From a virus (lineage: Duplodnaviria > Heunggongvirae > Uroviricota > Caudoviricetes), in IMG/VR virus record IMGVR_UViG_2541047779_000001: a DNA stretch of 36,485 nt. One strand, written 5' to 3'. Under the pieces are notes generated by a model. That model was not told where the DNA came from. It did no database searches and was given only the letters and a program-made list of their open reading frames with translations. Below, piece after piece: positions 22,217-27,656 of this stretch (position 1 is the stretch's first letter; each line of letters opens with the position of its first letter). Position numbers and translations under genes: made by a program.

Positions 22217-22814
22217 TCTGCTGCCACCGGGTTCAACACCACTGGAGCGCCGACTGGCGCAAACCTGCAGCGGGATTTCTGATCTGCAGGTGCCGCTGCG
22301 TGACTTGTGGAATCCGGCAACCTGTCCGGTCAGTTTCCTGCCTTATCTCGCCTGGGCGTTCTCTGTGGATCGCTGGGACGAGGGCTGGACAGAAAGCGTC
22401 AAGCGCCAGGTGGTGAAGGATGCTTTTTATATTCATCAGCATAAAGGGACCACCAGTGCCGTGCGGCGGGTGGTGGAGCCGTTCGGCTTTCTGATCCGCA
22501 TTATTGAGTGGTGGCAGACCGGAGAGGCACCGGGCACGTTTCGCCTGGATATCGGCGTGCAGGACCAGGGCATCACTGAAGATACCTATCTGGAACTTGA
22601 GCGACTGATAAGCGATGCCAAACCATGTAGCCGCCACATGATCGGCATGTCCATCAATCTGCAGACCAGCGGTCCATATTGGGTGGGGGCTGCAAGCTAT
22701 CTTGGCGAAGAAATCACGATCTATCCGTATATCAACGAAACAATTATTTCCGGCGGCACCGTGCATGAAGGCGGGGCGGTCCATGTTATTGACACAATGA
22801 GAGTGAATCCATGA
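22209..22814 (+). CDS. I: Baseplate/tail protein I
   Basis: Position and size; overlaps J stop. Confidence 0.8.
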   Translation: MNSLLPPGSTPLERRLAQTCSGISDLQVPLRDLWNPATCPVSFLPYLAWAFSVDRWDEGWTESVKRQVVKDAFYIHQHKGTTSAVRRVVEPFGFLIRIIEWWQTGEAPGTFRLDIGVQDQGITEDTYLELERLISDAKPCSRHMIGMSINLQTSGPYWVGAASYLGEEITIYPYINETIISGGTVHEGGAVHVIDTMRVNP

Positions 22815-24199
22815 GCACAAAATTTTATACCCTGCTGACGGATATTGGCGCGGCGAAACTTGCCAGCGCCGCCGCGCTCGGTGTGCCGTTAAAAATTACC
22901 CATATGGCGGTCGGCGATGGCGGCGGAACATTGCCAACGCCGGACGCAAAGCAGACTGCACTGGTAAATGAGAAACGCCGGGCTGCGCTGAATATGCTCT
23001 ATATCGACCCGCAGAACAGCAGCCAGATTATTGCCGAACAGGTGATCCCTGAAAACGAGGGTGGTTGGTGGATCCGTGAAGTGGGCCTGTTTGATGAGTC
23101 CGGGGCATTGATTGCCGTGGGCAACTGCCCGGAAAGCTATAAGCCGCAACTGGCTGAAGGCAGCGGGCGCACCCAGACCGTGCGCATGGTGCTGATAACC
23201 AGCAGCACGGACAATATCACCCTGAAAATAGACCCTGCTGTAGTGCTGGCAACCCGTAAATACGTGGATGATAAAGTCCTGGAATTAAAGCTGTATGTGG
23301 ATGACCAGATGAGAAACCACATTGCCGCACAAGATCCTCATACCCAGTATGCGCAGAAACATAATCCGACATTTACCGGAGAACCAAAAGCGCCGACGCC
23401 TGCAGCAGGAAATAACACCACTCGGATTGCGACCACAGAGTTTGTTCAGGCCGCTATTACTGCTCTAATTAACGGTGCGCCAGCCACGCTGGACACACTG
23501 AAAGAAATTGCTGCAGCCATTAACAATGACCCGAAATTCAGTACCACTATTAATAATGCGCTGGCACTGAAAGCGCCGCTGTCGAGTCCGGCACTTACCG
23601 GAACGCCAACAGCACCTACTGCGGCACAGTCGGTCAACAATACACAGATTGCCACTACGGCTTTTGTGAAATCGGCGATTGCAGGAATGGTGGGTTCTGC
23701 ACCTGCGGCACTGGATACATTGAACGAACTGGCGGCGGCGCTGGGGAATGACCCGAACTTTGCCACGACAATGCTTAATGCGCTAGCAGGTAAACAACCG
23801 CTGGACAATACGCTGACTAATTTGAGTGGAAAGGATGTAGCTGGTCTTCTCGCATACCTTGGTTTGGGAGAAGCCGCAAAACGAAACGTGGGAACACCGG
23901 AAAAGCAGACACCAGACACACCACCAAAAGCATCACGGAAAGGCAACCGAAAAACGCCAGATGCCGAAAAGGAACAAAAACGACCAAAGACTTACCCAAA
24001 GGAAAAAGGACCGGAATCCCCCAATGAGTCAATCCCCAGGCCAGATAAACAGACACCGGGCAATGCAACGAGACGCCAACGTGCAAGCCAGGCCGCAAAT
24101 ATCCGGGAACAGAACAACGAAAGCAATACAGGCACAAGAAACCAACGCAACGATAGACATGAAGATGCAGCCGGTTCAGCCAAAGGCGCGGAACAATGA
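22811..24199 (+). CDS. H: Tail fibre protein H; only the N-terminal/constant part (to about 23873) looks genuine
   Basis: N-terminus MSTKFYTLLTDIGAAKLA...MAVGDGGG and repeat region resemble P2 gpH. After ...AYLGLGE the frame runs into the A+C-rich segment and the C-terminal 108 codons are low complexity (K/P/T/Q/N-rich). Confidence 0.7.
   Translation: MSTKFYTLLTDIGAAKLASAAALGVPLKITHMAVGDGGGTLPTPDAKQTALVNEKRRAALNMLYIDPQNSSQIIAEQVIPENEGGWWIREVGLFDESGALIAVGNCPESYKPQLAEGSGRTQTVRMVLITSSTDNITLKIDPAVVLATRKYVDDKVLELKLYVDDQMRNHIAAQDPHTQYAQKHNPTFTGEPKAPTPAAGNNTTRIATTEFVQAAITALINGAPATLDTLKEIAAAINNDPKFSTTINNALALKAPLSSPALTGTPTAPTAAQSVNNTQIATTAFVKSAIAGMVGSAPAALDTLNELAAALGNDPNFATTMLNALAGKQPLDNTLTNLSGKDVAGLLAYLGLGEAAKRNVGTPEKQTPDTPPKASRKGNRKTPDAEKEQKRPKTYPKEKGPESPNESIPRPDKQTPGNATRRQRASQAANIREQNNESNTGTRNQRNDRHEDAAGSAKGAEQ
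23859..23873. repeat. Left inverted repeat / putative invertase crossover site
   Basis: ttggtttgggagaag is the exact reverse complement of 25693..25707. Confidence 0.7.
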
Positions 24200-25692
24200 A
24201 ACATCGGCAAGGAAACAACATGGCATACCCGGAAGAACGGCAGTCGAACAACAAAGAAAAAGAAAAAAAGCCAGAAAAAAAAGCAGGTCAGATACACCAA
24301 CGAAGATGCAAGCAAGAGAAACATGACACACAACCACAAGGAAAAGACAGAAGAAATGGAAAAGACGAACTGCCGAAAAGACCAGAAAGCCCTAAACCAA
24401 CACGAAAACAACAAACAGAACCAGCAGAAACAAAAAAGCAAAAATAGATCAACAACAACAAAAAATATAGCAACAGGAGACAATAGCCCGGCAAAGCCCC
24501 GACTGGACGCACCAAAGACAAAGAAAGCGCGCAATACAATCTGTCGCTCGATAAACTGAAAGCAATGGAAATAGGCGACACACCAACGCCGCCAAATAGT
24601 CAATAGCACACAAACCCGACAGACCAAACAAAACAAAATCCCGCGCGATGACCCTAAAAATACAACCAACAGCGCCAAAGTAACGCAACACAACGAAAAG
24701 GAGGGTGAGAAATGGCTGAAGCAGACCCAGCCACACCAGAAAGCCCAAGTAAACCAGACAAAAGCAAACCATCACACAATCAATCAGACACCAACGCCGT
24801 CCATCAGCCGCACCCAACGCAAAGCAAAGCCCGGCCGCAAGATCAGGCACACAGAAAACACCAGACCAAACACCGTACGGAATTAAAGGGACGAGAGGAC
24901 GGCAACAGACACCAGAACCACCCCGAACGGCAACTGCCCTGAAATCCCCCAGGACGAGACCATACAAAACCTCACCCACAGGAACTAGCAAACAGCCCCA
25001 GGAAGTCAAAACAACACAGCCACAAATTACATAACCACAGTTACGCACACCTCAGACAACCAAAAACCAACATACCAACACACCGACGACGACACAGAGA
25101 AACGCAGGCCAGATAAAAAAATAGCCCCGCGTTACGCCAGCATAATGAAATACGATCATCACCCCATCATGGAAAAAGAAACCCCCATGCACCAAAACAA
25201 CCTGCTCCAACAAAGCAGCACTCACAATCTAGTGAAATGCAATAGAAAGAGGCCCACAAAAACACGCCCCCGAAATCAAAACATTTGTCCTAACCACACG
25301 CACACTGTCAAACATAAAGACACTCAAATCCGTAAACAAATACAAGAACCCGCAAGCACAAATACTCAACCACAACCAAAACACAGAGAAAAACGAACAA
25401 CAAACAACACCAGAAATGAAGGGAGCCACGAACCAGCCAGGCATCCAATGGGTAGCCCCAAACATAGACCCCCCCCCAAAACAAACAACCAACACAACGA
25501 AAACAACACCTCGCCCAGCAAACCAAACCCGAAAAAAAACACCGCCCAAAACAGGCAAGTGTAAACCAGGAAAACCAATTCCCACCCACGGGTAAACTGA
25601 ACCAGAAAAAAGTGCACCCCAGCATGAAACCCAGCCAGATGATGACATAGCAGAAAGCCAAGGAACACCCACACCAACAGGCAACGCTGACC
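23874..25692. other. Invertible segment with extreme strand-asymmetric A+C-rich composition and no credible genes
   Basis: On the plus strand T is nearly absent and G reduced; for example 25381..25440 contains a single T. ORFs on both strands are low complexity. Confidence 0.8.
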
Positions 25693-25707
25693 CTTCTCCC
25701 AAACCAA
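25693..25707. repeat. Right inverted repeat / putative invertase crossover site
   Basis: cttctcccaaaccaa is the reverse complement of 23859..23873. Surrounding sequence ttctcccAAACCaaCGTTTaagaaaa (25694..25719) resembles Hin/Gin/Cin crossover sites. Confidence 0.7.
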
Positions 25708-25768
25708 CGTTTAAGAAAATGCAGCGATTACGACTAACTGGCATCATCCCCGGTTTTTATTCAGGGGG

Positions 25769-26341
25769 ATGATCATGCTTATTGGCTATGTACGCGTGTC
25801 AACAAATGACCAGAACACCGATTTGCAACGTAATGCACTGAACTGCGCGGGATGTGAGCGGATTTTTGAGGATAAAATCAGTGGCACTAAGTCCGACAGA
25901 CCAGGGTTGAAAAAACTGCTCAGGACACTATCGGCAGGAGACACGCTGGTTGTCTGGAAGCTGGACAGGTTGGGGCGCAGTATGCGGCATCTTGTTACGC
26001 TGATAGAAGAGTTACGCCAGCGTGGTGTGAATTTCAGAAGCCTGACTGACAGTATTGATACCAGTACCCCAATGGGCCGTTTCTTTTTTCATGTCATGGG
26101 TGCCCTGGCTGAAATGGAACGCGAACTGATAGTTGAACGTACCAGGGCAGGGCTGGCTGCAGCTCGTGCCAAAGGCAGAGTAGGTGGACGCCGTCCTAAG
26201 TTGACCACCGAACAGTGGGCACAGATTGGGCGTTTACTCGAGGCCGGAGAATCAAGACAGCGTATTGCACTGATTTTTGATGTAGGCGTTTCTACCATTT
26301 ATAGAAAATTTCCGGCAAATAAGATCAATGAATCCCCCTGA
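25769..26341 (+). CDS. Serine recombinase, DNA invertase (Hin/Gin/Cin/Pin family)
   Basis: N-terminal catalytic region MLIGYVRVSTNDQNTDLQRNAL with the active-site Ser, resolvase-type core, C-terminal HTH (FDVGVSTIYRKF). Confidence 0.9.
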   Translation: MIMLIGYVRVSTNDQNTDLQRNALNCAGCERIFEDKISGTKSDRPGLKKLLRTLSAGDTLVVWKLDRLGRSMRHLVTLIEELRQRGVNFRSLTDSIDTSTPMGRFFFHVMGALAEMERELIVERTRAGLAAARAKGRVGGRRPKLTTEQWAQIGRLLEAGESRQRIALIFDVGVSTIYRKFPANKINESP

Positions 26342-26389
26342 ATCAGCATTATGTTGATTATCCCTGCAAGCAGACAAATACCGTTATTT

Positions 26390-26407
26390 TGTGTGAATAA
26401 CGACACA
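26390..26407. promoter_or_regulatory. Ogr/Delta-type late promoter activator dyad upstream of FI
   Basis: TGTGTGAATAACGACACA: TGT-N12-ACA, about 75 bp before the FI start. Confidence 0.45.
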
Positions 26408-26483
26408 ACTGCGCTTAGCTGTTTGTCAGGCACAATCACTTCAACATAGGGCGAAGCCTAATCCAATCAGGAGGTTCGCCACT

Positions 26484-27656
26484 ATGGCTCAGGATTACCA
26501 CCACGGGGTGCGCGTTGTTGAAGTCAACGAAGGCACCCGATCTATTACCACGGTGAGCACCGCCATCGTGGGTATGGTCTGCACGGGCGATGATGCCGAT
26601 GCAAAAATGTTTCCTCTTAATAAACCCGTGCTGATCACTGATGTGCTGACTGCCAGCGGTAAAGCGGGTGAGTCCGGTACTCTGGCCCGTTCGCTGGATG
26701 CCATCGCTGACCAGGCAAAACCCGTGACCGTTGTTGTGCGTGTGCCGCAGGGTGAAACGGAAGACGAAACCACGACCAATATCATCGGCGCAGTGACTGC
26801 TGAAGGTAAAAAAACAGGTATGAAAGCCCTGTTATCTGCCCAGTCACAGCTCGGCGTTAAACCGCGCATTCTCGGCGTGCCAGGCCACGACACCAAGGCG
26901 GTAGCTACTGAGTTGCTGAGCGTGGCGCAAAGCCTGCGTGGATTTGCTTACCTGTCAGCGTATGGCTGCAAGACGGTACAGGAGGCGATCACTTACCGTG
27001 AAAACTTTAGCCAGCGCGAAGGGATGCTGATCTGGCCTGACTTTACTGGCTGGGACACGGTGCTGAATGCCGAAGCAACGGCATATGCCACCGCCCGTGC
27101 GCTTGGTCTGCGCGCCAAAATTGACGAGCAGACCGGATGGCACAAAAGCCTGTCCAACGTGGGCGTGAACGGTGTCACCGGAATTTCTGCTGATGTGTTC
27201 TGGGATCTGCAGGACCCGGCAACCGATGCAGGACTGCTGAACCAGAACGACGTCACCACGCTTGTGCGTAAAGACGGTTGCCGCTTCTGGGGTTCCCGCT
27301 GCCTGAGTGATGACCCGCTCTTTGCCTTCGAAAACTACACCCGCACGGCGCAGGTGCTGACGGACACAATGGCAGAAGCGCACATGTGGGCAGTGGACAA
27401 ACCGCTGAACCCGTCGCTGGCGCGCGACATTATCGAGGGCATCCGCGCCAAAATGCGCAGCCTGGTCAGTCAGGGGTATCTCATTGGTGGTGATTGCTGG
27501 CTGGATGAGTCGGTGAACGACAAAGACACGCTGAAAGCCGGAAAACTCACCATCGACTACGACTACACGCCAGTGCCGCCACTTGAAAACCTGATGCTGC
27601 GTCAGCGCATCACCGATCAGTACCTGGTGAATTTCGCCAGCCAGGTCAGCGCGTAA
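26484..27656 (+). CDS. FI: Contractile tail sheath protein FI
   Basis: 390-aa protein with AGGAGG RBS, followed by the tube gene. Confidence 0.9.

Follow-up and report, generated by a model that had tools for sequence, protein, structure and literature searches.

Members of the Gin/Cin/Pin/Hin family of DNA invertases are small serine recombinases with an N-terminal catalytic domain carrying a nucleophilic serine (S9 in Gin, S10 in Hin), the Arg and Asp catalytic residues of serine invertases and a C-terminal helix-turn-helix. They act on two inverted 26-bp sites, each consisting of 12-bp imperfect half-sites that flank a 2-bp core, and the two cores must match when read in the inverted sense. 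The enhancer of the family comprises two Fis sites in cis, usually within the invertase gene, in the 5′ part of its coding sequence. In P2-like (Peduoviridae-type) phages, the tail genes follow the order V-W-J-I-H-(fibre assembly)-FI-FII-E-T. Experiments on E. coli cultures have demonstrated inversion in P2-like prophages and in the e14 element, and in culture such loci normally exist as a mixture of orientations (PMC4272514).

Over 24 kb, the window examined here (the whole stretch of DNA that was analysed, 36,485 nt) shares ~96.5% identity with P2-family prophages. Its tail module presents, in Pfam terms, Phage_base_V, GPW_gp25, Baseplate_J, Tail_P2_I and Phage_tail_fib, followed in order by Phage_sheath_1, Phage_tube, Phage_TAC_7, Phage_P2_GpE and PhageMin_Tail; both the P2-like tail order and the P2-family domains are thus found in the window. 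The baseplate and fibre genes form a P2-type W-J-I-H block that ends with H, whose constant part lies outside an invertible segment delimited by two crossover sites (Table 1). Taken as a whole, the locus is very probably an ordinary, intact Gin/Pin-type switch, situated where the tail-fibre operon ends in a P2-like prophage of E. coli HVH 128, and its unusual cargo the product of a merge artefact.

Table 1. Coordinates of the invertible tail-fibre locus within the window; genes inside the segment are listed as they lie in reconstructed orientation A
Feature	Position	Strand	Description
H constant part (codons 1–350)	22811..23860	+	ORF; Pfam Phage_tail_fib at residues 1–150, E=2.5e-65
Left 26-bp crossover site	23847–23872		TTCTCGCATACC-TT-GGTTTGGGAGAA; core TT at 23859–23860; inner half-site forms the GLGE codons of H
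Interior of the invertible segment as deposited	23874..25692	.	Artefactual base-wise merge of both orientations
H C-terminus A (reconstructed)	23861..24193	+	Gp53-like_C (PF21882); 107 aa after GLGE
Tail-fibre assembly gene A (reconstructed)	24193..24636	+	147 aa; Caudo_TAP, E=3.2e-33
Tail-fibre assembly gene B (reconstructed)	24608..25210	-	200 aa; Caudo_TAP, E=1.5e-29
H C-terminus B (reconstructed)	25211..25705	-	Collar, E=5e-14; 160 aa after GLGE
Right 26-bp crossover site	25694–25719		TTCTCCCAAACC-AA-CGTTTAAGAAAA; core AA at 25706–25707
Serine DNA invertase, Gin/Cin/Pin/Hin family	25775..26341	+	188 aa; ORF 3′ of the right site
Candidate recombinational (Fis) enhancer	25793..25864	.	5′ end of the invertase gene; homology to the P1 cin enhancer

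The A/C-rich, T-poor interior of the segment is an assembly artefact and not real DNA. Its composition (A 44.8%, C 30.0%, G 17.8% and T 7.4%) shifts exactly at the repeats that bound it, and matches the frequencies expected for the minimum of two random bases (A 0.4375, C 0.3125, G 0.1875 and T 0.0625). At each position the deposited base is whichever comes first alphabetically of two, the base of the segment read forward and the one that its reverse complement places there. A mirror test of this rule, x[i] <= comp(x[49566-i]), returned no violations over 1819 positions, compared with 174–218 when the centre was shifted, and every T of the interior (135/135) mirrors an A. When the merge was computed as min(fwd, rc) on the segment of E. 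coli MS10860, 1818 of the 1819 positions were equal (99.95%; related locus L001), and the related locus L006 gave 99.89%. This segment is the only long merged run within the window; no merged stretches were detected in the rest of it or in the 11 related loci scanned. A long run in locus L012 was rejected as a candidate, being a genuine 262-bp inverted repeat complementary at 260 of 262 positions.

Merging of this kind loses orientation information only, and the true cassette is consequently recoverable from the record itself. Reconstruction here denotes the undoing of the merge, and min(rec, rc) computed on the result regenerates the window exactly. In orientation A the full H has 460 aa, the same length as the annotated H of L001, and tail-fibre assembly gene A corresponds to WP_000978829.1 in L001 and L006; gene B, silent in this orientation, corresponds to WP_095526201.1 in the same two loci. 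Inversion joins C-terminus B to the constant part, giving a 514-aa H paired with the 200-aa Tfa, and a 514-aa H is annotated in strain 4224, where the cassette is inverted. Both H–Tfa pairs (460+147 aa and 514+200 aa) are in frame after GLGE and contain the expected Pfam domains, and the restored cassette is at least 99.9% identical to cassettes in complete E. coli genomes. With the merge undone, the locus shows the features of a Mu S/U-S′/U′-type cassette, a constant N-terminus outside the segment and two C-termini with their chaperones inside it. Judged from the reconstructed sequence, the cassette with its two alternative tips and two chaperones is a standard one and is intact.

These results bear directly on an earlier note, which had placed the left repeat in frame within H at the codons for GLGE and had expected inversion to fuse the constant part of H to whatever the segment encodes in the other orientation. 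H starts at 22811 and its codons 351–354 (23861–23872, the inner half-site) indeed encode G-L-G-E, and in the reconstruction the second C-terminus is joined there in frame. The same note had regarded the cargo as non-functional; this view is abandoned, because the deposited sequence is a base-by-base superposition from which two complete tip–chaperone pairs emerge once it is undone.

As to its origin, the merge was probably produced when the assembler flattened a two-path ambiguity. Under this explanation, the segment and its reverse complement would be kept as equal-length paths in the form of per-base ambiguities, which would then be flattened to the first alternative before submission. The HVH 128 assembly was presumably made with ALLPATHS. 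Parallel edges and brace-listed alternatives are retained by that assembler (PMC2784318, PMC6434015). Flattening of a two-path ambiguity would imply that the sequenced HVH 128 culture held both orientations, and the record would then constitute indirect evidence that the switch was flipping in that culture.

The main competitor of this explanation holds that the merge arose in computation alone, through an accident such as a bug in post-processing or the merging of a contig with its own reverse complement, in which case the culture could have been of a single orientation. We consider this unlikely, while acknowledging that no other assembly with the artefact tail was found even though such cassettes are common, which would be odd if mixed cultures systematically gave rise to it. 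Against an accident, both boundaries of the merged stretch coincide exactly with the crossover repeats of a switch type known to be active, and an assembler has grounds for keeping two paths of equal length only when both are supported by junction reads. Such loci, moreover, are normally mixed in orientation in culture (PMC4272514). Flattening by the assembler is thus the explanation we prefer, and a further, rather doubtful extension of it is that the alphabetical-minimum merge is a reproducible by-product in ALLPATHS-type drafts of cultures mixed for invertible segments. If reproducible, the artefact would leave in public drafts a hidden trace of actively inverting DNA, detectable by the mirror test and decodable up to orientation, and it would also have introduced bogus low-complexity proteins into nr, RefSeq and UniRef. 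An exact look-up in the protein collection of the two merge products predicted for K-12 e14 returned none. A search with the artefact-tail protein returned genuine Gp53-like tails only, and the source protein itself was also not among them, while our literature search on such assembly artefacts and on HVH 128 yielded nothing specific.

The artefact is already present in the public deposition. Scaffold KE700032.1 (E. coli HVH 128, assembly GCA_000457875.1), at its positions 916596–927984, agrees with the window at every one of 11,389 bases and is free of ambiguity codes. The proteins EQR62638.1/WP_021532226.1, EQR62640.1/WP_021532228.1 and EQR62641.1 correspond exactly to the translated merged DNA and have no X residues, so that bogus merge-derived proteins are present in nr, RefSeq and UniRef. 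It is accordingly very improbable that the interior was changed after public deposition, through IUPAC conversion downstream or deliberate masking, and that GenBank holds something else. Such a change would fit the absence of an artefact 41-mer, in exact searches, from the viral, GTDB-representative and JGI metagenome collections, and the finding of no phage or complete E. coli record covering the deposited interior. In the search for the artefact elsewhere, a 100-mer from the H flank had no match in two collections. Alteration downstream of GenBank was rejected on the scaffold identity and on the accessions held by GenBank, RefSeq and UniRef for the merged translations. WP_021532226.1, WP_021532228.1 and EQR62641.1 are spurious wholly or in part, and the deposited cargo is unfit for interpretation.

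A biological origin of the interior has an almost vanishing probability. On this account the cargo would be real DNA, a decayed or hypermutated segment whose genes were destroyed and whose switch machinery was left behind, as the sequence taken at face value might suggest: it has no long meaningful ORFs and only 7% T, and the H ORF enters a low-complexity tail without a Pfam domain. However, no mutational process gives the mirror rule at all 1819 positions, and all but one of these positions agree with the merge computed from a normal cassette. Where the sequence departs from the relative, only T>A/C/G, G>A/C and C>A changes are seen, in both orientations. Hypermutation and strand-biased decay are excluded because these differences obey the alphabetical rule both ways and the mirror test is perfect.

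As the earlier note had claimed, TTGGTTTGGGAGAAG at 23859–23873 is the exact reverse complement of 25693–25707 (15/15); for 5.5 kb of sequence, chance predicts ~0.014 exact inverted pairs of 15-mers. The inverted repeat can be extended to 27 nt with 81% complementarity, and both 15-nt arms are contained within the two 26-bp crossover sites. When the whole 36.5-kb window was scanned with a matrix derived from Mu gix and P1 cix half-sites only, the left site ranked first (25.8 bits) and the right site second (23.7 bits), whereas the best unrelated site scored 11.3 bits and the highest score across 20 shuffles was 14.9 bits. The resemblance of the right site to Hin/Gin/Cin crossover sites, as stated in the earlier note, is borne out for Gin and Cin sites by this formal comparison, and extends to the left site. 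The core dinucleotides are inverted between the sites, TT on the left and AA on the right, and the family layout of two inverted 26-bp sites with matching cores is found here. That the repeats are fortuitous or a relic, and the recombinase a resolvase or integrase unrelated to them, is scarcely credible: nothing favours it apart from the shortness of the perfect repeat (15 bp), whereas the low chance expectation and the retention of the same arrangement in e14, Mu and many prophages count against it, and the ranks of the two sites on the gix/cix matrix together with the occurrence of both orientations in genomes rule it out.

The invertase gene does lie outside the right repeat as an intact ORF, in agreement with the earlier note, although its start is corrected from 25769 to 25775, the position that is used in relatives and aligns with Gin M1, leaving 188 aa. 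The protein matches the Pfam families Resolvase (E=2.2e-53) and HTH_7 (E=1.4e-15) and the Gin structures 3uj3 and 4m6f with E about 1e-92 (1.1e-92 for 3uj3), and is 83.5, 76.6 and 73.9% identical to PinE, Cin and Gin, respectively. It contains Y5, R7, S9 (the catalytic Ser), D64, R65 and R68; the catalytic Ser, the Arg/Asp residues and the C-terminal helix-turn-helix that characterize small serine recombinases are all present. In the public collection, 9140 blocks contain an identical protein, beside comparable cassettes. These data support an intact invertase of the Gin/Cin/Pin/Hin family.

Residues that contact Fis and the enhancer are conserved in invertases but not in resolvases. In Hin, they comprise Q151, R154 and L155, together with basic residues 47, 48 and 51 (PMC3798978). 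Alignment to the Hin DNA-binding domain (1hcr) equates Q150, R153 and L154 of the present invertase with Hin Q151, R154 and L155. The protein also carries K46, K47 and R50, which are presumably the counterparts of Hin 47, 48 and 51. A scan for promoters and terminators around the invertase gene gave matches at chance level only.

A search of the 5′ region of the invertase gene located a candidate enhancer by homology to P1 cin only: 25793–25864 and the enhancer annotated in P1 cin (nt 19–90) are identical at 56 of 72 positions, within a conserved coding region where third-codon identity is no higher than downstream, so that homology and coding constraint are not told apart. In each of the four genes compared, the 15-mer at 25845–25859 (gene nt 71–85) agrees with the degenerate Fis consensus. 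A second Fis candidate (gene nt 22–36) is spaced 49 bp from it instead of 48 and is a poor match to the consensus, and the assignment of two Fis sites from the degenerate consensus was rejected, just one being common to all four genes. By analogy with the family, the switch may depend on Fis.

Genome comparison shows the same cassette, with the same protein accessions, in both states, E. coli MS10860 having orientation A and ST131 strain 4224 orientation B, and cassettes of the same domain architecture occur in both orientations beside the identical invertase in further genomes. Together with the intact invertase and the two top-ranking sites, this upholds the original reading of the locus as an inversion apparatus, with evidence at the genome level across strains and, for HVH 128 itself, the indirect evidence of the merged record.

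In the proposed mechanism, the N-terminal 354 residues of H are constant and encoded outside the 1.85-kb invertible segment. The segment holds, back to back, the Gp53-like and Collar C-termini of H, and a dedicated tail-fibre assembly chaperone gene comes after each of them. The 188-aa invertase would bind the two 26-bp sites and, as in other members of its family, would assemble with the Fis-bound enhancer in its own 5′ coding region, cut both sites at the central TT/AA, rotate the DNA and religate it. The operon would then read the other C-terminus and chaperone, with a change in receptor specificity, and host range may thereby change. Such biology is already known; this would be a textbook host-range switch, whose identical invertase appears thousands of times in public data.

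Comparison with described systems places the locus among the gene-end switches, unlike the Salmonella Hin system (Hin/Fin), which flips a promoter and not gene ends. The G segment of Mu follows the same logic, Sc being joined to Sv/U or Sv′/U′ with the invertase just outside the right site; its sites are likewise 26 bp with the same half-site consensus, and the present invertase, 73.9% identical to Gin, fits the Gin crystal structures. The G segment differs in its 3-kb length, its 34-bp-class repeats and its TC/GA core, and Mu is a transposable myovirus whose variable modules are unrelated in sequence to those found here. The C segment of P1 uses the same family of sites and invertases (76.6% identity to Cin), but it spans 4.2 kb with long repeats, and, with respect to the fibre gene, cin is located at the opposite side of the segment.

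The P segment of e14 with PinE (E. coli K-12: stfP/tfaP, tfaE/stfE, pinE) shares the gene layout of the present locus, namely fibre constant part, pix site, Hc-Tfa, Tfa′-Hc′, pix site and invertase. Its inner half-sites are identical to those described here (GGTTTGGGAGAA); the right site differs from pixR at 1 of 26 positions and the left site from pixL at 3 of 26, each of which falls in the outer half-site. The invertases are 83.5% identical, and the distance between the repeat arms is similar, 1797 nt in e14 versus 1819 nt here. In contrast, e14 is a defective lambdoid element in which stfE is annotated as a pseudogene, whereas the present prophage is P2-like with a full tail module, its constant part is of the P2 H type (Phage_tail_fib N-terminus) and one of its variable modules is Gp53-like. 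In P2-like E. coli prophages, for example that of EPEC E2348/69, phase variation by inversion has been observed by sequencing (PMC4272514). From the segments of these prophages the locus shows no essential difference, its sole peculiarity being the way in which the public assembly represents it.

The scarcity of T in the segment between the crossover repeats (23874-25692), the cargo of the switch that looked non-functional in the earlier note, is an artefact of the deposited assembly, in which both orientations are merged base by base, and it can be decoded. Base composition between the repeats, with which the limits of the anomaly coincide exactly, is A 44.8%, C 30.0%, G 17.8% and T 7.4%, close to the proportions predicted for the alphabetical minimum of two random bases (0.4375, 0.3125, 0.1875 and 0.0625, respectively). 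Searched by megablast against complete E. coli genomes, 22811-27656 found matches for its flanks alone, and the flank matches in several complete-genome records span an identical length of 4846 bp. Ungapped comparison with the locus of strain MS10860 (L001) gave 63% identity in either orientation, the sole substitution types from L001 to the window being T>A/C/G, G>A/C and C>A, meaning that the window never has the alphabetically later base. At 1818 of 1819 positions the window carries the lower of the two bases found in the L001 segment and in its reverse complement, and the lone mismatch is accounted for by one underlying C-to-G difference (25415). Complementation turns alphabetical order round, and a merged sequence should accordingly obey x[i] <= comp(x[49566-i]) at every position, a rule applied here without any reference; violations numbered 0 of 1819, against 174-218 for shifted centres, and all 135 T residues stand opposite an A. 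Scanning every centre revealed no second merged run in the window.

The deposited base at each position is the lower of the pair, and the higher can be read by complementing the mirror position, so both are known throughout; the merge loses phase only, and the more abundant orientation is not readable from the deposited sequence. Phasing by L001 yielded a sequence that reproduces the window exactly when re-merged, and undoing the merge in this way returned in-frame fibre tips and assembly chaperones. The tail-fibre gene H starts at 22811, and the left repeat does lie in frame within it, as proposed: the inner half-site (23861-23872) supplies codons 351-354, which encode GLGE; both the H-A and the H-B fusion continue in frame immediately past this motif.

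Features of the inversion locus, the reconstructed orientations and the products called on merged DNA
Feature	Position	Details
Left crossover site	23847-23872	TTCTCGCATACC-TT-GGTTTGGGAGAA
Right crossover site	25694-25719	TTCTCCCAAACC-AA-CGTTTAAGAAAA
Serine recombinase (invertase) ORF	25775 (start), 3' of right site	188 aa; start matches relatives and Gin
Candidate enhancer	25793-25864	Homologous to P1 cin nt 19-90; 56/72 positions identical
Candidate Fis 15-mer	25845-25859	GCGCGGGATGTGAGC; degenerate Fis consensus matched in 4/4 genes compared
Second candidate Fis 15-mer	25796-25810	GTGTCAACAAATGAC; poorer consensus fit
Orientation A		H of 460 aa, Gp53-like_C tip, then 147-aa Caudo_TAP chaperone gene
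Orientation A, opposite strand		200-aa Caudo_TAP gene and Collar-type tip
Orientation B		H of 514 aa, Collar tip, then 200-aa chaperone gene
Merged-DNA ORF	22811-24199	EQR62638.1 / WP_021532226.1, 'phage tail protein'
Merged-DNA ORF	24712-24942	EQR62640.1 / WP_021532228.1
Merged-DNA ORF	25229-25747, minus strand	EQR62641.1 (G788_00863)

Both orientations, rather than the single one that would have spoken against a switch, exist at the genome level. The cassette is in orientation A in L001 and in orientation B in ST131 strain 4224 (L006; 99.9% identity), the two loci carrying identical chaperone protein accessions on swapped strands. Junction queries against complete genomes gave 12 with the H-A fusion and 371 with H-B. 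The public collection lists 9140 blocks containing the exact invertase protein, and among the ten loci shown for it are cassettes of the same domain architecture (Collar/Tfa200 opposed to Tfa147/Gp53-like) in both states. Goldberg et al. (PMC4272514) demonstrated e14 inversion by sequencing and PCR and detected inversion in two EPEC P2-like prophages by sequencing.

Relatives also vary in other respects. H has a mosaic constant part, 23211-23510 being only 74-87% identical to the MS10860 prophage compared with 95-99% on either side. The fibre locus is damaged in some relatives: H is annotated as incomplete in strain H1 (NZ_CP010160.1), and in E. coli W an IS3-family transposase sits inside the matched span. 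In a related prophage with an identical invertase (L012; GCA_019297505.1, NBJG01000001.1), most of the segment is without called genes, and a 262-bp inverted repeat (260/262) at 1094-1355 and 2675-2936 marks the segment ends, reflecting the same Gp53-like tip module at both.

A search for exact copies of the artefactual 462-aa H protein returned one contig, scaffold KE700032.1 (916596-927984) of GCA_000457875.1, from Escherichia coli HVH 128 (4-7030436), which is identical to the window across 11,389 bases and free of ambiguity codes. EQR62638.1, EQR62640.1 and EQR62641.1 are exact translations of merged DNA, each the sole member of its 90% cluster; wholly or partly, they are spurious, as are the WP_ entries paired with the first two. 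The merge therefore predates submission and has since spread into nr, RefSeq and UniRef. Its source was probably a mixed culture combined with flattening by the assembler. HVH 128 is presumably a Broad Institute ALLPATHS assembly. ALLPATHS retains parallel edges as ambiguities, and efasta lists alternatives in braces (PMC2784318, PMC6434015). A culture mixed for orientations would generate an assembly graph with two equal-length parallel paths between shared flanks, and such paths, if written as sorted per-base alternatives and flattened to the first, would give exactly the merge seen. An artefact-tail protein search and a look-up of predicted e14 merge products found no second example, so the event may be rare; the protein search missed its own source protein (P0001), an exact match and its cluster's representative, which calls for caution over its negatives for low-complexity artefact proteins.

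The flanking machinery is intact, as the earlier note supposed, comprising two crossover sites and a complete invertase with its catalytic residues. The 15-nt repeat TTGGTTTGGGAGAAG (23859-23873) recurs at 25693-25707 as its exact reverse complement, with ~0.014 such pairs expected by chance per 5.5-kb region, and a repeat finder stretched the match to 27 nt (81% complementarity). Each site spans 26 bp, with two 12-bp half-sites flanking a 2-bp core, and the cores are mutually complementary, as an inversion substrate requires. The likeness of the right site to Hin/Gin/Cin sites, proposed in the earlier note, was borne out for gix and cix by a position weight matrix built from only eight half-sites, those of gixL and gixR in the Mu record and of cixL and cixR in the annotated P1 record: across the entire 36.5-kb window, the left and right sites ranked first and second (25.8 and 23.7 bits), followed by a site at 11.3 bits, and the top score among 20 window shuffles was 14.9.

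The invertase ORF lies just outside the right repeat, where it had been placed, although it starts at 25775, as in relatives and Gin, and not at 25769. Pfam assigns it Resolvase (E=2.2e-53) and HTH_7 (E=1.4e-15) domains, and Y5, R7, S9, D64, R65 and R68 are all there. Alignment to the Hin DNA-binding domain pairs Q150, R153 and L154 with Hin Q151, R154 and L155, and K46, K47 and R50 are taken here as counterparts of basic Hin residues 47, 48 and 51. These Hin positions are the ones that McLean et al. (PMC3798978) list as contacting Fis and the enhancer and as kept only in enhancer-dependent invertases. P1 has its annotated Cin enhancer at cin nt 19-90. The stretch homologous to it here, in the 5' region of the invertase gene, is a candidate enhancer, likely by homology; third-codon conservation within it is not above that downstream. 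Its two candidate Fis sites are 49 bp apart, centre to centre, the expected spacing being 48 bp. A perfect 12-nt inverted repeat (ATTCAGGGGGAT / ATCCCCCTGAAT; 25759-25770 and 26332-26343) almost exactly frames the invertase ORF and may mean nothing, since the same formula as for the 15-nt repeat predicts ~0.9 such pairs per 5.5 kb.

Ahead of the segment lie the P2-type genes W, J, I and H, and beyond the invertase FI and FII, so the segment makes up the distal part of the fibre operon. Some 80 bp before the sheath gene FI (26484), a TGT-N12-ACA dyad (26390-26407) resembles the usual P2 late-promoter activator site, which would put the invertase between two late operons. Only the tip and chaperone facing the constant part of H would be expressed; flipping by the adjacent invertase would exchange both, and the swapped tip, to judge from the analogous switches of Mu, P1 and e14, may use another receptor. 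The biology of this switch is already known, and the artefact is the point of interest. The inversion apparatus itself is real, complete and well known in kind: the nearest solved structures to the invertase are Mu Gin 3uj3 and 4m6f (E about 1e-92), its global identity is 83.5% to PinE, 76.6% to Cin and 73.9% to Gin, and its right site differs from e14 pixR at only 1 of 26 positions, the inner half-sites being identical to those of e14.
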